Origin: a bacterium
GTDB lineage: Bacteria > Patescibacteriota > Minisyncoccia > Phycocordibacterales > JAKAEA01
Direction: 5' to 3'
DNA: 64,000 nt
NCBI GenBank assembly: GCA_021785065.1
Contig: JAJYGQ010000003.1
Location: forward strand, 2,470-66,469
Below, one piece after another: positions 6,511-56,783 of the stretch. Every line of letters starts with the position of its first letter. Position 1 is the stretch's first letter. Below the pieces are notes generated by a model, which saw only the letters and a list, made by a program, of their open reading frames with translations, was not told the DNA's origin and searched no databases. The position numbers and the translations under genes were made by a program.

Positions 6511-7290
6511 ATGGAAATCTTTGCTAACAAAACTATTCGCACCGCACTCCTCATCCTGATGGTGTCTGCTTCACTTGCGCTTCTCGCTACGGCTGTCAAC
6601 TTGTTTTCTCAAGTGGGTGCACCATCTGATATTAACAAAATTCCTACCATTGCTGTTTCTGGTACTGGTAAGGCAACAGCTATTCCTGATGTCGCCGAAT
6701 TTTCTTTTACGGTAGATAAGACAGCGGCTACTGTCGCGGCAGCACAAAACGCGGCAAGCACCCTGACCAATAGAGCACTCACCACGCTTCAAAATGCTGG
6801 TGTTTCTAAAAATGATTTACAGACCACCAACTATTCTATCTCACCCCACTATACTTATAGTGCGCAACCGACAATTTGTCCTGTTGGTGGCTGCCCGCCA
6901 GTTCGCCAAGTGCTTGACGGCTATGAAGTATCCCAAACTATTAACGTAAAAGTAGAAACCGCCTCCACTACTGGCGCATTACTTCAAACGATTGGTCAGA
7001 TGGGTATTACTCAGGTGAGCGGCATTACCTTTACTGAAAATAATCCCCACACTGCCCAAGATGAGGCGCGAGCAAAAGCAATTGCTGATGCTGAGCAAAA
7101 AGCCCAAACACTAGCAAGTCAGCTCGGTGTACGTCTCGTGCGCATTGTCAGTTTCCAGGAATCAAATAATACTCCGCAGCCGATCTATCAGATGGCCACT
7201 TTTGCTACAGCCGCGTCAGCTGCCCCCTCTATTCCTACTGGTGAAAATACAGTGACTGAAAACGTTACTATTACCTACGAAATCGAGTAG
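6511..7290 (+). CDS. SIMPL-domain (DUF541) periplasmic protein
   Basis: Signal/TM then VSGTGKATAIPDVAEFSFTV pattern typical of SIMPL/26 kDa periplasmic immunogenic protein family. Confidence 0.6.
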   Translation: MEIFANKTIRTALLILMVSASLALLATAVNLFSQVGAPSDINKIPTIAVSGTGKATAIPDVAEFSFTVDKTAATVAAAQNAASTLTNRALTTLQNAGVSKNDLQTTNYSISPHYTYSAQPTICPVGGCPPVRQVLDGYEVSQTINVKVETASTTGALLQTIGQMGITQVSGITFTENNPHTAQDEARAKAIADAEQKAQTLASQLGVRLVRIVSFQESNNTPQPIYQMATFATAASAAPSIPTGENTVTENVTITYEIE

Positions 7291-37964: not shown

Positions 37965-40900
37965 ATGAAATTTTTGCAGCAGTGTGTGTTACTTGGTGTT
38001 GTGGCGGTGTGCGCTAGCGTGCTTGGTTGGTCACCGGCGTATGCGGCTGGCACGGTACCGGTTACGGGCGATATGGCTACTGACACCGTATGGACGGCCG
38101 ATGATGGCGTCTATGTGGTTTCCAGTGTCGTCACTATCGACCCGGGGGCGACGCTTTATATTGAACCAGGTACGATAGTAAAATTTTCTCAAGGCGCAAG
38201 TCTCAATGTCCTCGGGGCATTAAATGCCGCGGGCAATCCAGTAAATCCGGTGTACTTTACTTCGTTTGCCGACGACGCTGTTGGCGGTGACACAAATGCT
38301 GACGGTTCGAATTCGTTGCCATCAGCTTCCGATACTTGGGACATTAACTTTCTCCACGCTTCGTATTCAACGATTTCTGGCGCGGTACTCCGCTATAGTA
38401 GCGGCGGAATATTTAATCTGGATTCTCGTTTGTCGCTCGCCAGTACCAGCGTAGCCTTTATGGATAATCCAATTTCAGTTTCGCAGGGAAAACTCAATCT
38501 CAGCAATGTTCTCTTTTCTCATATGTCTCAGGGCGCGCTATGGATATATGCCACCAGTAGTGCGACGCTTGCTTCAACCACGGTTACCAACAGTACAACA
38601 GGGGCGGTGATGGTATACAACAATAGCAATCTTTCGGCGCGTCAGCTTTCTGTGGTAGGCGAGCAAAATGGTCCGGCCCTTTCGGTATACAATCTCTCGA
38701 CCGCTACCTGCGAGCGGTGCGCACTTTCCGATAACGCTACTTCGGTGGTGGTGTATTCGGGAAGTAATCTCGCGCTCAATCATTCGTCCATTGAAAATGC
38801 TACCGGCACCGCCGCTACCGATTTCGAGCTGTATGACCCGGCGTGGAATACGTCGCTACCCAGACATTCGCAGGCTACGTTGTCCGCGACAACGCTGCGC
38901 GGCGGCAAGGACGGCATCATTGTTTTTGGACCGGTAACGTTGCGCCTAGCCACTACAACTATAGAAAATTTTTCCGACGACGGTATTCAAGCTTACGATG
39001 GAGCAACGCTTGTGGGATCTTCGCTACGGGTGAGCAAAAATAAAAATGCTGGTTTAGAAATGTGGTCGACGGTTAACGGGTCGGTGCGCTACAGTGATAT
39101 TTCTGATAATGGTCAATTTGGCATATTGAGTCGGACGGCCACGCCTTTTGCCGCTGTGCAAAATTGGTGGGGAAGTGCTAGCGGGCCCCATCACGCCACG
39201 CTCAATACTAACGGTTCCGGTGACACTGTTTCGGATAACGTCACCTTTTCTCCGTGGCTTCAGGATAAAACGCCTCCGGACCCCGTGGACCCGCCGCCCT
39301 GTTGCTCAAGCGTTCTCTTTATTCCTGGTATTGAAGCGAGCCGATTGTATGCAACCTCAAGCACGCTACTTGGTCGCCTAACCAAAAGAGCGGGTACGAA
39401 AGAAATTCAACTTTGGGAACCAGGATTTACGACGCCCATTAATAAACTTATGCTCGATGAATCCGGTGCCAGTCTCAATTCGGTGTATACCAAAGATATT
39501 ATTACGACCACCAACGAACTGTTGCCAATGTCTAACATAGACATATATAAAACTTTTTCTGGCGTGCTCACCACTCTTGCTACTGAAGGGGCGATTGCGT
39601 CGTGGCAAGCTTACCCTTATGATTGGCGACTTGATCCGCAGTCGCTTGTCGAAAATGGCACACAACTCGCCGCAACGCTGTCTCGGTTAGAGCCGATGGT
39701 TGAGTCGCTGGCCGCGAGTTCAAAAACCGGGAAGGTGACTATTGTTGCCCATAGTAACGGTGGCATACTCGCAAAACTTTTATTGAGTAAGTTGCAAGCC
39801 GAGGGAAAAAGTCAGCTCGTGGATACATTAGTGTTCGTTGCGGTGCCGCAATTAGGGACACCGATAGCTATACCCGCTCTTCTTTCAGGGTATGGTCAGC
39901 AAATTGGCATGGGTTTTATTTTAAACGCCACCACCGCTCAGCATCTTGCTCAAAATATGCCTGCCGCATACAGCTTTATTCCTTCAGCGGCATATTTTCA
40001 TACCACGACATCACCTGTCATTTTTGATCCTTCGCTCAAGACGATTTCTGATTTGTATCAAAATTACGGTCCCGTTATTTCTGATGCTACGTCTCTCGCA
40101 AAATTTTTAACAGCAACAACAAACACAAAACGTTCCTCACCAATAGTGACCCCGGCAAATAGTACACTGCTGGCCGCGGCGACTAGGTTGCACGTCTCGC
40201 TTGATAGTTGGCAGGCACCATCTGGTGTCAATGTTATTACGGTGGCCGGTGTGGGTATTGATACACTTTCTGCTACACGTTATTACGCGCGCCCACCGTC
40301 GTTTTGGGGTAACTTATGGGGAGCTTCGGCTACTATAGACATGTCTCCCCAAATGACATCACTCGGCGACAATACCGTGGTAACACCAAGCGCCGCGGCT
40401 ACCATCCCCAAGTCGTTTACGTACTACATTGATTTAGCCGCGTACAACAATAAGAGCGGAAAAAATCGCGGGCATGCTGATATTTTAGAAGCCGAACCAA
40501 CCGACGAGCTTCTCATAGATATCATACGGGGTTCGGTGGGCACAGCGGCGTCACTCTCGCCAGTATTACCTCATTTTGTTTCCACAACTATTCCCGCCAA
40601 CTACCTTACCAATGCTAGTAATACAAAAACAGAAGAACAAATAAGCGTCCATTCACCGGTGGTGTTAAATGTATACGATGATCAAGGGCGACACACTGGT
40701 CCTGTTAAAAATATTACTGCGATAGATTCAGCGCTTATTCCCACCGAAAGCAAAATTCCCAATAGCTACTATCTACCCTTCGGGGAAGGGCAATACGTAG
40801 GGGTGCCTTTAGGAACGAAAGGAAAAATTGTCCTTTCGGGAACAGCGGCAGGATCAGCCACGCTTGATATTACAGCGTATGGTACGACCACGCAGTTTTC

Positions 40901-41207
40901 CGATATTCCCGTGATGAAAACATCTATTGCTACGGTAGATCTTGGCAGCACTACGCCATCACTTGATCTTGACTACGACGGCGACGGTACTATTGATGTC
41001 GTCTTTCCTCCAACGCCCGCCGGCGCTACAGCATATCCAGCCGCAGTTCAAAAACTTATCAGTGCGTTTTCTCGAAACCGAGCACATCATAAAAATATGC
41101 TAGGAAAATTAGAAAGCATCATTGAGACCATTAAAGAAAAATTTGACGATCATGTTGTTTCGTCTGACCATCCTGACCGCGCTGTTCCCACTACCTTGGA
41201 CCATTGA
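37965..41207 (+). CDS. large secreted protein: right-handed beta-helix (pectate-lyase-like) N-terminal region fused to an alpha/beta-hydrolase (lipase/esterase, GHSxG) domain
   Basis: Signal peptide; repeated NxxxS/Gxxx beta-helix-like repeats over about 450 aa; nucleophile elbow VTIVAHSNGGILAKLLL. Confidence 0.6.
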   Translation: MKFLQQCVLLGVVAVCASVLGWSPAYAAGTVPVTGDMATDTVWTADDGVYVVSSVVTIDPGATLYIEPGTIVKFSQGASLNVLGALNAAGNPVNPVYFTSFADDAVGGDTNADGSNSLPSASDTWDINFLHASYSTISGAVLRYSSGGIFNLDSRLSLASTSVAFMDNPISVSQGKLNLSNVLFSHMSQGALWIYATSSATLASTTVTNSTTGAVMVYNNSNLSARQLSVVGEQNGPALSVYNLSTATCERCALSDNATSVVVYSGSNLALNHSSIENATGTAATDFELYDPAWNTSLPRHSQATLSATTLRGGKDGIIVFGPVTLRLATTTIENFSDDGIQAYDGATLVGSSLRVSKNKNAGLEMWSTVNGSVRYSDISDNGQFGILSRTATPFAAVQNWWGSASGPHHATLNTNGSGDTVSDNVTFSPWLQDKTPPDPVDPPPCCSSVLFIPGIEASRLYATSSTLLGRLTKRAGTKEIQLWEPGFTTPINKLMLDESGASLNSVYTKDIITTTNELLPMSNIDIYKTFSGVLTTLATEGAIASWQAYPYDWRLDPQSLVENGTQLAATLSRLEPMVESLAASSKTGKVTIVAHSNGGILAKLLLSKLQAEGKSQLVDTLVFVAVPQLGTPIAIPALLSGYGQQIGMGFILNATTAQHLAQNMPAAYSFIPSAAYFHTTTSPVIFDPSLKTISDLYQNYGPVISDATSLAKFLTATTNTKRSSPIVTPANSTLLAAATRLHVSLDSWQAPSGVNVITVAGVGIDTLSATRYYARPPSFWGNLWGASATIDMSPQMTSLGDNTVVTPSAAATIPKSFTYYIDLAAYNNKSGKNRGHADILEAEPTDELLIDIIRGSVGTAASLSPVLPHFVSTTIPANYLTNASNTKTEEQISVHSPVVLNVYDDQGRHTGPVKNITAIDSALIPTESKIPNSYYLPFGEGQYVGVPLGTKGKIVLSGTAAGSATLDITAYGTTTQFSDIPVMKTSIATVDLGSTTPSLDLDYDGDGTIDVVFPPTPAGATAYPAAVQKLISAFSRNRAHHKNMLGKLESIIETIKEKFDDHVVSSDHPDRAVPTTLDH

Positions 41208-41339: not shown

Positions 41340-41843
41340 ATGGCTCTATCAAAAAGTAAGAAAAAGGAAGTTTTAGACAAGGTTTCGCAGATTGCTGCAA
41401 AATCAGCGTCTATGGTGTTTGTGAACTTTCATGGTTTGCCGGTAGCGGAAACCACCGAGCTGCGCCGCGATCTTCGCGCCCAGGGTGTTAGCTACACGGT
41501 TGCGAAGAAGACCCTAATGCGTCGAGCCCTCGCTAGTGATATTGGTAAAACAATAGCGGGCGAGATGCCCGAGCTCGGCGGTGAAGTGGCTATTGCCTAC
41601 AGCACCGACGACGCATTAGCGCCAGCTCGAGAAGTGTATGCTTTTGAAAAAAAGCATGAAGGAAAAATTTCCATTCTCGGTGCCGTCTTCGATAACGCCT
41701 ACATTGATCGCGATGCCACTATGGCAATTGCGAGCATCCCACCACGCCAAACGCTCTTGGGTATGCTGGTAAATGTTATCAATAGTCCTATTCAGCGAAC
41801 AGCGATAGCACTGAGTGAAATCGCAAAAACCAAAACAGCGTAA
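41340..41843 (+). CDS. rplJ: 50S ribosomal protein L10
   Basis: [15 protein letters not shown]... L10 N-terminus, followed by rplL. Confidence 0.9.
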
Positions 41844-43047: not shown

Positions 43048-43857
43048 AGCTCCTACCTGAATATGTTGATCAAAAAATTCCACTGCCGCTCGTAAAGGCC
43101 CTTAACAACGGCTTTTATGTCCGCGGCAACGCGGATTTTTTGTTTTCCGAACGATTGTTGCTTGAAAAATACATTCCGTCGCGGCACGACTTTCTAGCAT
43201 CGGCAACGATGTTAGAGGGGTCTTTATAGTGTCGTAGACGGGCAGGTAAAACAATACTGTTATTGAGAATCTTTGATTCCAGATAACAGAGTATATTAAT
43301 TGTGGTTCTTACATTTCCTGACGGGAATGTAAGGGCATATGGTGGATGCCTTGGCTTCAAAAGGCGATGAAGGACGTAGCATAACTGCGATAAGCTTCGG
43401 GGAGGTGTCGAGCAACCGTCAATCCGAAGATTTCCGAATGAGGAAACTCCCGCGTTTTAACGCGGACGTTTGCGCTTGACGCAAACGAGTATACCCAGGG
43501 AAGTAAAACATTTCAGTACCTGGAGGAATAGAGACCAATCGCGCAAGCGAATGGAATTTCCTAAGTAGCGGCGAGCGAAAAGGAATGAGCCCAAACCCGA
43601 TTCCACCTTTGCTGTTTGACGAGAGTCGAATAGCGGAGGTGCGATCGGGGGTTGTAAGGCGGTAACGTCACTTTTATAGTGAGAAGAGTTACAAAATGAG
43701 ATAGTAGCGGAACGTGCTGGAAAGCGCGGCCCCAGAGGGTAATGGCCCCGTACGCGAAACTAACTCATCTCTTTTGTTACCGTTCTTGAGTACCTCGAGA
43801 CACGAATGGCTCGGGGGAATCCAGCGGAACTAACCGCTAAGGCTAAATACTTTTGAA

Positions 43858-43897
<40 letters not shown>

Positions 43898-43967
43898 CAG
43901 CCCGGTGAGGGCGGTGAAATAGACCTGAAACCATATGCCTACAAGGAGTCAGAGCGGGGTACCACTT

Positions 43968-44385
43968 TGCGTGGTATGACGTTCTCAAAATAAAATTAAG
44001 AAAATTTATCTTTCATTCATCAAAATTTTATTGCTGAATATATACACTTTTATTGTGTACTATGTTTATGTAATACAAAGTTTGATGGATACAACCTTCT
44101 ACATAGGTTATACGAATTCAATTGATCGAAGATTGAAAGAACATAACTATAGTAAGGGTCGCTTTACCAGGAAACATATTCCCTGGAAACTTGTTTACTA
44201 TGAAGCATTTAACGACAAATTTCTAGCGAAACGTCGAGAAAAGATGCTCAAAGAAACCAGTAGGGCTTGGCAAGAATTACGAAAACGTCTCGGTGTTAAT
44301 TATCGAGAAAAAAAATCGCAAACAAATCCAGCCCAAGATATATTATTTTCTAAGTAAGTTTATAATTGAGGATGTCATAGTGCCT
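43968..44385 (+). mobile_element. about 415-nt AT-rich insertion in 23S helix-25 region (IVS-like or intron) carrying a GIY-YIG ORF
   Basis: Flanked by a perfect 13-bp helix GGGGTACCACTTT / AAAGTGGTACCCC; E. coli-equivalent position about 540-550, the classic IVS site. Confidence 0.6.
44031..44357 (+). CDS. GIY-YIG family nuclease (small stand-alone type) encoded inside the 23S insertion
   Basis: YVYVIQS...FYIGYTNSIDRRLKEHN plus downstream Arg/Glu catalytic residues. Confidence 0.75.
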   Translation: MLNIYTFIVYYVYVIQSLMDTTFYIGYTNSIDRRLKEHNYSKGRFTRKHIPWKLVYYEAFNDKFLAKRREKMLKETSRAWQELRKRLGVNYREKKSQTNPAQDILFSK

Positions 44386-46099
44386 AAAGTGGTACCCCGT
44401 CATGGCGTGCCTATTGAAGAATGAGCCAACGAGTTCTAGCATCCTGCGGGCTAAAGGCGCGAGCCTGGAGCCGCAGGGAAACCGAGTGTGAATAGCGCGT
44501 TTGTAGGATGCTAGAGACCCGAAGCCAGAGCGATCTACCCATGTGCAGGGTGAATGGTGCCGAAAGGCACCAGGAGGCCCGAACCGATAAGCCGTTCAAC
44601 ACTTTCGGATGACATGTGGGTCGAAGTGAAAAGCTAATCGAGCCTGGTAATAGCTGGTTCTCTCCGAAATAGCTTTTGGGTTAGCGTCGAATGTTCCCAG
44701 GGGGGGTAGAGCACTGGAAGGTCTCGACAGGGCGAAAGCTCGCGAGACCTATCAAACTCCGAATACTCTTGGTTAAAAGTTCGGCAGTTAGACTGTGGGG
44801 GCTAAGCTCCATTGGTCAAAAGGGAAACAGCCCAGATCTCCAGTTAAGGTCCCTAAATTTATGCTAAGTGCACTTAAGGTGGTAGAAATTCTCTAACAAT
44901 GAGGAGGTTGGCTTAGAAGCAGCCATCCTTTAAAGAAAGCGTAACAGCTCACTCATCGAGAGTTTCCGCGCCGAAGATAATCGGGGCTAAGCATAGTACC
45001 GAAACTGAGGACATTATTTTTCTTCGGAAAAATAGCGTGGTAGGAGAGTTTTCGTGTTGCGATGAAGGCGAAGGGGTGACCCACGCTGGAGCGTCACGAA
45101 GTAAGAATGTTGGCACAAGTAACCGCAATCAGTGTGAAAACCACTGACGCCGAAAGATCAAGGTTTCCTTGGCAATGACAATCAGCCAAGGGTTAGTCGG
45201 TCCTAAGGGGATGGCGAACGCCGCACCCGATGGATACATGGTTAATATTCCATGACTTTTGTGTTAGGCGATGAGAGGACGGAGTGCAGTATCCCGAGCA
45301 CCTTATTGGATTGGTGTTCGTGTCGTGAGAGTGGCGTGTAGGAAAATCCGCACGCGGCCGTAAGGCACATTCAAGCGAAGCGAAGCTGTTGAGGGCGACC
45401 TCGACCAATTCGGGAAAGCGCGCTTCCAAGAAAAGTCTCTAAGCTTACTAACACAGAAACCGTACCGCAAACCGACACAGGTGATCAGCTCGAGTAGAGC
45501 AAGGCGAACGAATGAGAAGTCCCCAAGGAACTCGGCAAAAAAGCGGCCGTAACTTCGGAATAAGGCCTGCCTATCGCAAGATAGGCCGCAGCTAAAGTAT
45601 GCTTGGCAACTGTTTACCAAAAACACAGCTCCCTGCGAACTCGAAAGAGGATGTATAGGGGGTGACACTTGACCAATGCCAGAAGGTCAACTATCGGCGG
45701 TGCGATTATATCAAGCTGACTGGTACAAGCCCTGGTGAATGTCGGTCGTAACTATAACGATCCTAAGGTAGCGAAATTCCTTGTCAGGTAAGTTCTGACG
45801 CGCACGAATAGTGTCATGACTGAGCAACTGTCTCGGGGACCCGTTCGGTGAAAATACAATACCGGTGAAGATGCCGGTTACCTGCAGCTAGACGAAAAGA
45901 CCCCGGAAGCTTTACTGCAACTTGGTATTGAGCGTACGTTGTTGATGCGTAGCATAGGTGGGAGAGGTTGAGGGCATGATCTCGGTTGTGCCGGACTCGT
46001 CAGTGAAATACCACTCTTCATAGGTGTACGTTCTAACCCGCGCGGCAAAAACGCGCGGAAACAGTACTAGGCGGGCAGTTTTAGTGGGGCGCTATCCTC

Positions 46100-47059
46100 A
46101 ACTTTGGGCGCCTCAGATTTGGTAAATGGTTCAAACGACCCTCCACCAAGTCAAATTATAAAATCAGGGGGACTTTAGTCCGTAAGGGCTATCGAAAAGT
46201 TAGCTATATGCTGGAACATCCGAGTATCTTTATGTACTCGCTCAAGTTTTTTGAGCAGTGAAAATCGTAAAGTGCGGACAATCAGCAGGAAATGCTCCTA
46301 TTCTAATATTTTTATTCAGCATAGAAGCAAATCCTCAGAGACTACACGCTAACCTCCGCGAAAGCGGATGATGATATAGTCCGATCTTTGTGGCGACACA
46401 AAGCTTACTACATATAGTAAGACCATTAATGAACACTAAGGAAATTCGGGAGTACAAAAACACTCTCAAACTTACTGACATTCAAAAATCTATTCTCGTC
46501 GGAACATTGTTGGGCGATGGACATTTAGAGACGCAAGATAACGGTAAAACGTATCGTCTCAAAATTGAACATCAGTTAGCCCAGCAAGACTACACGGAAT
46601 GGCTTCACAGCCACTTCAAAGAGTGGGTTAGAAATGGAATGTATAGAAAAGTAAAATCACAAGGTAAAGAATATGTCGGATTTACCACATATTCGCACGG
46701 CGCCTTCAGATTTTACGCTCAGCAATTTTACACTGAGAAAAAGAAACATATTCCCAGAATGATCAGTAAATTGCTAAATCCATTAGTTGTTGCGATCTGG
46801 TTTATGGATGATGGTTCGTGGAAATCAGAAAAACACGAAACCTTCATAATACATACGCTCGGATTCACAAAAGAAGATCTTACGTTGATACAAGATTCGT
46901 TTAGAAAATTGTTCAATATAGAAACTTCACTTCATCGACAAAAAGAAAGATATTGGAGGTTGTATATACGATCAAGTTCCGCAAAAGAATTTGAAAAACT
47001 AATACAACCTTACACATCACTCGTTGATTCTATGAAGAAAAAGATGGGTAACAATAAGC
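46100..47059 (+). mobile_element. group I intron in 23S rRNA (domain V, before CTAAAGAGTAACGGAGG) encoding a LAGLIDADG endonuclease
   Basis: Exon sequence resumes exactly at CTAAAGAGTAACGGAGGAG; intron contains AGAGACTACACG (P7/J8-7-like); ORF stop codon lies in the downstream exon. Confidence 0.7.
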
Positions 47060-47070
47060 CTAAAGAGTAA
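46390..47070 (+). CDS. double-motif LAGLIDADG homing endonuclease
   Basis: ILVGTLLGDGHL and VVAIWFMDDGS motifs about 100 aa apart. Confidence 0.85.
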   Translation: MATQSLLHIVRPLMNTKEIREYKNTLKLTDIQKSILVGTLLGDGHLETQDNGKTYRLKIEHQLAQQDYTEWLHSHFKEWVRNGMYRKVKSQGKEYVGFTTYSHGAFRFYAQQFYTEKKKHIPRMISKLLNPLVVAIWFMDDGSWKSEKHETFIIHTLGFTKEDLTLIQDSFRKLFNIETSLHRQKERYWRLYIRSSSAKEFEKLIQPYTSLVDSMKKKMGNNKPKE

Positions 47071-47392
47071 CGGAGGAGTCTATTAAGGTCGGCTAGGCGC
47101 GAATGGAAACCGTGCCGATAGGGCATTGCCACAAGCCGGCTTGACTGCAAGAGGTAAGTCTCGAGCAGGTGCGAAAGCAGAGCAAAGTGAACCGACCATC
47201 CGCATTAGATGCGGTGGAAGATTATCTGACAAAAGCTACTCCGGGGATAACAGGCTGGTACTGCCTAAGCGTCCATAGCGACGGCAGTGTTCGGCACCTC
47301 GATGTCGGCTCAAGATATCCTCCTGGTGGAGAAGCTAGGAAGGGTTTGGCTGTTCGCCAATTAAAATCTTACGCGAGCTGGGTTCAGACCGT

Positions 47393-47714
47393 TCAGCGCT
47401 CAAATCGGAATTTTGGAATTTTCTGAAATTTTTGACATTGAGCATTGAACCGTCTGAATCCCGAGGTTTAGTTTCAGTTCCACAACTATCTGTAACTTGT
47501 TCACGGCGGTCCCGTCGAGTAATCGGCGGTGACACAGTCAACTTATATCGGTGAAGCCCATATCGTGGGAACACGAGTGCTGGTGACACCTAGGGAATTT
47601 TGTAAATTTTTACAAATGCCCGTAGAGACTACACGTTGACTATCTTTCTCGGAGTTTATAGACCGAGTGAGATAAAAATATAGTCCATTGCACGGAGTGA
47701 TCCGTGGAAACAAG
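47393..47714 (+). mobile_element. ORF-less group I intron in 23S at the L2593-equivalent site (between GACCGT and CGTGAGACAG)
   Basis: Exon context GCGAGCTGGGTTCAGACCGT | ... | CGTGAGACAGGTTGGTC matches the I-CreI/L2593 homing site; contains AGAGACTACACG core-like element. Confidence 0.65.
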
Positions 47715-47856
47715 CGTGAGACAGGTTGGTCTCCTATCTGCTGCAGGCGTTGATTCTTGAAGAGATTTGACTCTAGTACGAGAGGACCGAGTTGAACTGA
47801 CCTCTGGTGTGGCAGCTCTGGCGCCAGCTGGACCGCTGCGTAGCTATGTCGGGAAC

Positions 47857-47889
<33 letters not shown>

Positions 47890-48072
47890 GACTCTAAGAT
47901 TAGGAATCGTTAAGACCCGTGGGAGATGACCACGTTGATAGGCACCAGGTGTACGCACAGTAATGTGTTGAGCCGAGGTGTACTAATTGGTCGATCTTGT
48001 CAGGAAATGTACGAAGCACAAAATATACTCTGTTACCTGGAATTACAAAGAAATTAAAACATTGAATGTTGT

Positions 48073-48186
48073 GTTCTGGTGGTTCGTCGCGGAGGTCACA
48101 CCTGATCTCATTCCGAACTCAGAAGTTAAGCTCCGTTGAGGCGATGGTACCGTCTATGGATGGGAGAGTAGCTCGCCGCCGGAACA
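48073..48186 (+). rRNA. rrf: 5S ribosomal RNA
   Basis: CCTGATCTCATTCCGAACTCAGAAGTTAAGC and GGGAGAGTAGCTCGCCGCC blocks. Confidence 0.9.
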
Positions 48187-54679: not shown

Positions 54680-54957
54680 GTCTCCTACTCTCTATAGGGG
54701 AGTTGGTTCTTTGAAACTTGAAATACTTGAGATGGGTGGAGCCGGTAAAAACGGCTGCATCCAGCAAGTACCCAAATTATTCTTACAAAAATAATTCCAA
54801 ATAAAATAAGTCAGTTTTATTCGAGCAATCAAACTCTACGAATCTAAATTATTGTTAGGCATAAGAACATATTAAAGCGATAGTTTTCACTAGCGTCTTT
54901 TATTTTGTTCCGTTTGACTCGTCAAGAATCTTATTCGATTCTTCGCGAGGATAATTT

Positions 54958-56555
<1,598 letters not shown>

Positions 56556-56783
56556 TTCAAGGTGAATTTCGTCAATCATCACTTGATGATTAGACTGACG
56601 GAGTCGATATTGTGGATCTCGTACGAGTCCATAATGGAACGCGAATTCCTAAAGCGCTGACCGCAGGGAAAGACCGCAAATAAACGGAACAAAATAAAGG
56701 ACGTCGCTTCTTTATTCGGAAAAATCGCCTTAATAGGGCGGTTTTTCTTTTATTAGGTCATATTTTTAGGGTACAGAAAAGTA

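Follow-up and report, generated by a model that had tools for sequence, protein, structure and literature searches.

Group I introns that carry LAGLIDADG homing endonuclease genes were reportedly first noted in the 23S rRNA genes of bacteria of the candidate phyla radiation (CPR, or Patescibacteria) by Brown et al. in 2015. They have been surveyed across CPR rRNA genes by Tsurumaki et al. (2024, PMC11270868). In the part of that survey available here, insertions are reported in 82% of 23S genes, 45% of the insertions are group I introns, and 62 LAGLIDADG_2 open reading frames (ORFs) of about 210 amino acids are counted in 23S insertions, 44 of them within group I introns recognised by Rfam. 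The same part describes ORF-less introns and GIY-YIG-bearing non-intron insertions in the same genes, and intron sites clustered around the peptidyl transferase centre, with 23IS9–11, 13 and 14 being new relative to other bacteria; its text names sites 1917, 1931, 1952, 2593, 2604 and 2657, and none between 1952 and 2593. Two other reference points are the translational control described for the phage T4 td intron and I-TevI (Gibb and Edgell 2010, as cited in the available part of PMC3984707) and the concept of "core creep" (Edgell et al. 2011, PMC3073962). The locus described here is a 960 nt insertion at positions 46099–47058 of a 64,000 nt stretch (the window) of contig JAJYGQ010000003.1 from the patescibacterial assembly GCA_021785065.1. 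It interrupts the 23S rRNA gene after U2262 (E. coli numbering; site L2262) and is a predicted mobile group I intron with an I-SceI-type endonuclease gene. Coordinates below refer to the window, and all features lie on its forward (+) strand.

The bacterial 23S rRNA gene spans 43319–48004, and its 4686 nt against the 2925 positions of the Rfam model indicate that about 1.7 kb has been inserted. BLAST comparison with an E. coli 23S copy showed three large insertions in the gene. In the one considered here, the 5′ exon (...GGGGCGCTATCCT) ends at 46098 and the 3′ exon (CCTAAAGAGTAACGGAGGAG) begins at 47059, with a single C that could be assigned to either boundary. An earlier note on this DNA, made from the letters alone, had placed an interruption of domain V at 46100–47059; the domain, the insertion place and the length of 960 nt were borne out, but the boundaries were moved one base to the left because, by the rules for group I introns, the 5′ exon should end in U and the intron in G. 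The statistics of the family, mostly counted in 75 of 81 sources (80 fetched loci and the window), are consistent with this register. The exon-final base is U in 73 of 75 relatives, the two exceptions being loci where the 5′ boundary was misplaced by the motif search; the first intron base (C46099), able to pair with the next G of the guide sequence, is a pyrimidine in 72; and the final intron nucleotide, omega-G (47058), is G in all 75.

The E. coli reference copy has 2898 nt and departs from the standard numbering by an offset that falls stepwise through domain V (+7, then +6, then +5). The numbering was calibrated on U1923, U1931, A2058, the P-loop, U2449, A2451, U2500, G2553, U2585 and A2602. 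Between 1923 and the P-loop inclusive the offset amounts to +7, because the sequence GGGG must occupy 2250–2253 for G2251–G2253 all to be G, and the 5′ exon therefore ends at U2262. This base is part of the 5′ strand of the helix UCCUCC/GGAGGA, the next one after the P-loop hairpin (presumably helices 81 and 80, respectively). By landmark numbering and pairing, the last 12 nt of the 5′ exon (46087–46098; G2251–U2262 of E. coli) comprise the P-loop and the start of the following helix; they form the left half of the predicted homing site and are paired by the intron in two segments. The right half is the start of the 3′ exon (47059–47076; C2263 onward), which also holds the CCU partner of P10 and the stop codon of the ORF (TAA, 47068–47070).

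A covariance-model search, which the earlier note had proposed as a check on its group I assignment, returned RF00028, the single Rfam model for all group I introns, at 46133–46403 with 77.9 bits, the gathering score being 50 (E = 4.5e-18; model positions 1–253 of 253). A hand-built model with P1, P2, P3, P4, P5, P5a/b, P6, P7, P8, P9 and P9.1 was tested against 54 homologous introns aligned with MAFFT. Standard pairs were formed in 81.6% of cells, compared with 70.4% in shuffles and 34–45% when the partners were slid by 1–3 columns. Double-sided changes occurred at 43 of 58 pairs and the covariation score was 0.326 versus 0.142; none of 500 shuffles and no slid version equalled the observed values. 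P3, P4, P5, P7 and P9 were 91–100% paired, with many double-sided changes, while the lower alignment scores of P2, P8 and P9.1 arise because MAFFT misaligns hairpins of variable length, co-varying stems being visible. The minimum free energy (MFE) fold of 46173–46428 recovered P2–P9.1 independently (z = −4.5; none of 200 shuffles equally stable). Sequence, Rfam match and covariation together establish P1 with its U–G wobble, P2–P9.1 and the terminal G. On this sequence-level evidence the insertion is a group I intron, a new member of the class catalogued in CPR bacteria, and its first ~330 nt are predicted to fold as a complete group I ribozyme.

Within the core, P2 (46176–46191) is a hairpin with a GUAA tetraloop, drawn from the MFE fold and the visible co-varying stems and, in a poor MAFFT register, 54% paired. 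P3 joins GUUAGC (46199–46204) to GCUAAC (46348–46353) and is 91% paired, with double-sided changes at all six pairs. Covariation and the MFE fold define the P4–P5–P5a/b–P6 domain (46209–46334), which comprises P4 (46210–46214:46282–46286; 99% paired), P5 (46219–46222:46275–46278; 98%), P5a (46223–46226:46235–46238), P5b (46240–46245:46251–46256) and P6 (46288–46290:46332–46334; 91%). The element AGAGACTACACG at 46337–46348, previously suspected to be P7-like, corresponds to the 5′ strand of P7 (46338–46344, with G46338 paired and A46339 bulged) plus J7/3. The 3′ strand of P7, UAGUCC (46377–46382), follows from the Rfam match and covariation and is preceded by J8/7 (UGAUGAUA). P7 is 99% paired, and its changes are compensatory, G46338–C46382 alternating with A–U (41:12) and a U–A pair with C–G. 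By analogy with the Tetrahymena intron, G46340–C46381 is taken to be the guanosine-binding pair. P8 (46355–46368; Rfam match and MFE fold) has a GAAA loop. The segment 46386–46421 holds P9 (46386–46392:46397–46403, with a GCGA loop) and P9.1 (46404–46410:46415–46421), both drawn from covariation and the MFE fold; P9 is 100% paired and five of its seven pairs are compensatory. No P7.1 or P7.2 was seen by eye, L2 and L9 are GNRA loops, and P5 is extended by A-rich sequence. In P7 and J8/7 the sequence resembles that of Tetrahymena, and the core gives the by-eye impression of being IC-like.

The internal guide sequence, A-GGGGGA (46166–46172), is identified by its covariation with the exon and lies at a distance from the intron's 5′ terminus. 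Its conserved part, GGGGGA (46167–46172), provides the GGGA (46169–46172) that pairs with exon UCCU (46095–46098) to form P1. The splice-site wobble, U46098–G46169, is U–G in 46 and U–A in 4 of 51 relatives, and the guide co-varies with exon position −4 (UA 30, CG 3, GC 3). G46168 pairs with the first intron base, C46099. P10 would consist of three possible pairs (CCU:AGG) between G46168, G46167 and A46166 and the 3′ exon bases C47059, C47060 and U47061, in an exon that is invariant among the relatives. Two other assignments were rejected: the first stem of the Rfam alignment (CCCUCC:GGGGG) is probably mis-assigned, its GGGGG being the guide sequence, and a local P1 hairpin between exon CCU and UUUGGG (46104–46108) fails because the GGG is missing from relatives and it is the conserved GGGGGA that co-varies with the exon.

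A second exon-binding segment, GGCGCCU (46107–46113), pairs with exon GGGCGCU (46087–46093; positions −12 to −6, P-loop G2251–U2257). Of 71 relatives, 29 have this helix with 8 perfect base pairs, and its variants are compensatory with the exon (GGGCGGUA:UGCCGCCU, GGGCUGUA:UGCAGCCU and GGGCGCUC:GAGCGCCU). It and P1 make a pseudoknot whose exon strand would pass without a break from one helix into the other. In simpler relatives (e.g., loci L029 and L073) the second helix is absent, and one long continuous P1 takes its place. A peripheral hairpin in the enlarged P1 loop (46115–46152; GAUUUGGU at 46115–46122 with ACCAAGUC at 46145–46152) was read from the sequence and has a counterpart at the same place in relatives. 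Just 5′ of the guide is a conserved A-rich segment, AAAUUAUAAAAUCA (46153–46166; AAAACAAAUAAAA-like in relatives), which is presumed to act as a linker.

The ORF (46429–47070; ATG at 46429) encodes 213 amino acids and starts with MNTKEI in all relatives. Its product gave a full-length match to Pfam LAGLIDADG_2 (PF03161; profile positions 2–168 of 168, E = 1.4e-43), and residues 2–208 matched I-SceI with 30% identity (E = 8.9e-21). Both motifs of the double-motif LAGLIDADG protein that had been read from the letters are present, as ILVGTLLGDGH at residues 22–32 (46492–46524; D30) and LVVAIWFMDDGSW at residues 119–131 (46783–46821; D127/D128). D30 and D128 align with D44 and D145 of I-SceI, the catalytic residues of that enzyme, and none of D30, D127 and D128 varies among 29 family sequences. 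The AlphaFold2 (AF2) model (predicted local distance difference test, pLDDT, 92.3; predicted template modelling score, pTM, 0.89) shows a pseudo-symmetric, two-lobed alpha-beta fold. In a Foldseek search it matched I-SceI (1r7m) with a template modelling (TM) score of 0.86 and a root mean square deviation of 2.2, with I-WcaI next. The sole disordered segment in the model is residues 209–213, whose codons straddle the splice site and extend into the exon. The product is predicted to be a monomeric, two-motif LAGLIDADG endonuclease of the I-SceI type with both catalytic aspartates, and its predicted target is the 35-nt uninterrupted site GTGGGGCGCTATCCTCCTAAAGAGTAACGGAGGAG.

The endonuclease has 1543 homologues in a large protein collection, and relatives occur in 339 species-level genomes, the record titles of which name almost exclusively Patescibacteria/CPR lineages. 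These titles and the available part of the survey (PMC11270868) both accord with the earlier note's remark that protein-encoding rRNA introns are typical of CPR genomes. The ORF is found between the same two 23S flanks in 75 of the 81 sources, the other six being truncated by contig ends or missed by the motif search. The homing site, which had been expected to be identifiable, occurs as an exact, uninterrupted 35-nt sequence in at least 120 metagenome contigs. One empty site is in metagenome contig Ga0265336_10000015 (locus L099), which is 95.5% identical to the window over 331 nt of the upstream exon. This locus carries an intron-sized insertion of ~350 nt at L1931 (L099 positions 6585–6937), matching window position 45769, where the window has none, so that the two close relatives differ in intron content. 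One site is thus used in diverse hosts, with occupied and empty copies among relatives, as is characteristic of mobile introns, and such a mosaic is expected from homing with gain and loss.

The ORF occupies the ~630 nt from P9.1 to the 3′ end of the intron and, as had been noticed, its stop codon lies in the downstream exon: the last four codons with the stop (CCU AAA GAG UAA) are exon sequence, and the ORF ends 12 nt into the 3′ exon. The stop is at +12 in 42 of 75 relatives (tail ...PKK or ...PKE), at +5 in 12 (tail ...NA), 3–15 nt ahead of the splice site in 16, and further downstream in 5. Thus 54 of the 75 have an ORF that passes over the 3′ splice site to end at +12 or +5 in the exon; with no in-frame stop ahead of the splice site, their excised intron would be a non-stop message. 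In the five others that read through (L016, L031, L057, L064 and L073) the endonuclease frame enters the exon by 25–74 nt, as the sole frame without an early exon stop; either decay of these copies or faulty assembly may be the cause.

A peripheral long-range helix closes on the ORF, which makes up its loop, an arrangement shared with many mobile introns. This closing helix, named P9.2 in the present analysis, was located by covariation and joins CCAUU (46423–46427), which ends 1 nt before the start codon, to GAUGG (47043–47047), inside the codons for K-M-G at a distance of 11–16 nt from the 3′ splice site. Across the family, the 5–8 nt that immediately precede the ATG are paired to the K-L/M-G codons, which lie 9–10 nt ahead of the splice site, and about 25 co-varying sequence variants of this pairing occur. 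The best helix averages 5.6 bp with a locus's own partner versus 4.3 bp with the partners of others, a value reached in none of 2000 permutations. This test was used in place of a gap-free register test, which gave 55% pairing, a low value because the relatives differ by small indels. An unusual feature is that the last codons of the ORF double as the 3′ strand of the closing helix, the partner of a short P9.0 and omega-G.

A promoter scan found no promoter-like site above chance upstream of the ORF. The 3′ end of the 16S rRNA (56535–56565) reads ...GGAACAUUUC, compared with GGAUCACCUCCUUA in E. coli, and therefore lacks the anti-Shine–Dalgarno sequence CCUCC. No Shine–Dalgarno sequence was seen upstream of the inspected window genes, such as those starting at 41340, 42358, 49031 and 51638.

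The preferred interpretation, a mobile group I intron after U2262 of patescibacterial 23S rRNA with an I-SceI-type endonuclease, together with the splicing, homing and translation from precursor set out here, is given a probability of about 0.88. The intron would excise itself from the pre-rRNA by two guanosine-initiated transesterifications, restoring the helix beside the P-loop; the predicted ligated junction is ...GCUAUCCU joined to CCUAAAGAG (UAUCCU-CCUAAAG). The closing helix would return the 3′ splice site to the core, and the second exon-binding segment probably holds the exon and blocks its refolding into the native rRNA hairpins. The endonuclease would cut intron-less 23S genes at GGGGCGCTATCCT/CCTAAAGAGTAACGG, and repair would copy the intron in. 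The enzyme would be translated from unspliced or half-spliced precursor with its 3′ region unfolded, splicing and translation of any one molecule being mutually exclusive. A protein made only from precursor, with normal termination, is the simplest proposal because the intron has no internal stop and the start codon is buried against the closing helix. Several observations count against parts of this interpretation. In the window only 5 bp, one of them G–U, make up the short closing helix, P10 has 3 bp, and the second exon helix has 7 bp and reaches only p = 0.055 in single-sequence shuffling; the two exon-binding helices, which form a pseudoknot, may not exist simultaneously. The Rfam model does not distinguish subgroups IA–IE. 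Finally, since 16 of 75 relatives stop before the splice site, an exon stop is not a requirement and may just reflect extension of the ORF.

This last point belongs to the serious rival of translation from precursor, namely compaction without regulatory meaning. Here an ORF squeezed to the 3′ end of the intron by core creep would have acquired its exon stop and its start beside a helix, and the enzyme could be made from any RNA; this has nearly an even chance of being correct. In its favour are stop positions that vary between +12, +5 and −3 to −15, with a few reading through, as the core-creep concept predicts (PMC3073962), the disorder predicted in the exon-encoded tail (residues 209–213), and a conserved exon that happens to give UAA in two of three frames. 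It is harder to reconcile with the lack of an in-frame stop before the splice site in the majority of relatives (54 of 75), whose excised introns would be non-stop, and with a start-codon helix maintained by compensatory changes through ~25 versions. Of a different kind is the suggestion, fully compatible with a group I intron, that the ribozyme needs a protein helper, either its own LAGLIDADG protein as a maturase or a host factor. In the window copy the 3′ splice site is ~640 nt from the core, and only the 5-bp closing helix, a weak P9.0 and the P10 of 3 bp tie it there; LAGLIDADG maturases exist, with bI3 and I-AniI among the fold matches (TM about 0.55–0.6), and maturase-like activity is reported for a LAGLIDADG protein of a bacterial 23S intron (PMC3984707). 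Even so, a helper appears unlikely given a core that is complete and under clear structural selection, and nearest structural relatives that are I-SceI and I-WcaI. Both of these are endonucleases that are not known to act as maturases.

Very improbable, by comparison, is an intervening sequence removed by RNases without ligation to leave a fragmented 23S rRNA. Intervening sequences are common in bacterial 23S genes and have been proposed for some CPR insertions (PMC11270868, in the part available), and the GIY-YIG insertion of this same 23S gene, described below, resembles one. The L2262 insertion, however, has a full group I core, a U–G splice-site wobble, a terminal G in 75 of 75 relatives and a guide that co-varies with the exon, and it interrupts a helix, strictly conserved and adjacent to the P-loop, not the tip of a variable hairpin.

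Beyond the preferred interpretation, a tentative proposal, with the odds somewhat against it, is that two-segment recognition of the 5′ exon, a stop codon in the exon and a splice-site helix covering the start codon make up a coupled design not described before for group I introns. The short P1 and the 8-bp P-loop helix may stack as one long pseudoknotted helix, by analogy with the two exon-binding sites of group II introns. The endonuclease gene may be fused to the 3′ splice site in such a way that only unspliced precursor rRNA is a complete message, and the helix that docks the 3′ splice site may cover the start codon. If correct, the design would give the intron its own splicing–translation switch, in an organism without Shine–Dalgarno pairing.

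The same 23S gene carries two other insertions. The first is an ORF-less group I intron of 322 nt (47393–47714) after U2593, the I-CreI site, which ends ...AACAAG before CGUGAGACAG. It scores 31.9 bits with Rfam, below the gathering score of 50 (E = 1.5e-6), and has the same P7 signature (GUAGAGACUACACG ... AUAUAGUCC). The second is an insertion of ~440 nt (43956–44398) in a variable hairpin around E. coli positions 540–610, with a GIY-YIG ORF of 108 amino acids (44031–44357; Pfam E = 1.2e-15). It gave no intron-like RNA match and is bounded by a long inverted repeat (43956–43981 with 44374–44398), like an intervening sequence processed by RNase III; this agrees with the remark, in the available part of the survey, that GIY-YIG ORFs occur in non-intron insertions (PMC11270868). 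The rRNA genes are not linked, and their order is unusual: 23S–5S (43319–48184) is followed ~6.8 kb downstream by 16S (54956–56562), with protein-coding genes between 5S and 16S that include RodA/FtsW-like and SecD-like ORFs. Just upstream of the L10–L7/L12 genes, positions 37965–41207 encode a secreted-looking protein of 1080 amino acids with beta-helix and LCAT-like lipase domains (Pfam).

So many group I introns with endonuclease genes have been documented in CPR rRNA genes that a single example adds little. A modest specialist use lies in the precise site after U2262, the set of homologues from 339 species genomes, the covariation-backed secondary structure with its splice-site helices, and the testable crossing of the 3′ splice site by the ORF. 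The enzyme is a candidate new nuclease of the I-SceI type with a predicted target of 35 bp, and an insert of 0.9–1.3 kb has to be stripped when rRNA genes of these bacteria are called or 23S-based phylogenies are built.

In comparison with known systems, the introns surveyed by Tsurumaki et al. share with the window the host lineage, the gene, the ribozyme class and the mix of introns and other insertions, as far as the available part of the article goes (PMC11270868). The L2262 intron is almost certainly of the kind counted in that survey, and its site is presumably one of the unnamed 23IS9–11. The term "single-domain" in the available text denotes one Pfam domain spanning both motifs, and the window enzyme is a two-motif protein like I-SceI; it is unlike I-ShaI, the enzyme characterised there, a single-motif LAGLIDADG_1 homodimer encoded by a mid-insertion ORF at site 23IS7. 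The available part of the survey makes no mention of an ORF-closing helix, an exon stop or two-part exon binding, and three family-wide features may be undescribed: the ORF-closing helix with the exon stop, the start codon abutting that helix, and the 5′ exon bound twice. No report of an intron at site 2262/2263 of a large subunit (LSU) rRNA was found in the literature searched, older papers on organelle LSU introns being outside its scope.

The omega intron of yeast mitochondria, with I-SceI, and the I-WcaI system likewise combine a group I intron in LSU domain V with a monomeric two-motif LAGLIDADG enzyme. The omega intron is at L2449 (numbering checked) in a mitochondrial host, whereas the window intron is at L2262 in a bacterial one. 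The C-terminal tail of the window enzyme is much shorter than that of I-SceI and ends at the splice site, and the ORF of the omega intron lies in an internal loop of the ribozyme. Bacterial 23S introns outside the CPR are known from L1917, L1931 or L1951, with LAGLIDADG_1-type genes. Like the window intron, those of Thermotoga, Coxiella, Simkania and cyanobacteria are located in the conserved domains IV/V and often carry LAGLIDADG genes (PMC3984707).

The phage T4 td intron and its enzyme I-TevI offer a likeness in expression: in both cases the ORF overlaps sequence needed by the ribozyme, and the start region is held in RNA structure, such that translation competes with splicing, a control that for the window intron is presumed. 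The td intron differs in that it interrupts a protein-coding gene, encodes a GIY-YIG enzyme and has an ORF ending inside the intron, whereas the window intron resides in an untranslated host RNA of an organism without Shine–Dalgarno pairing and has an ORF that crosses the 3′ splice site. The arrangement of the window ORF is an extreme form of core creep (PMC3073962).

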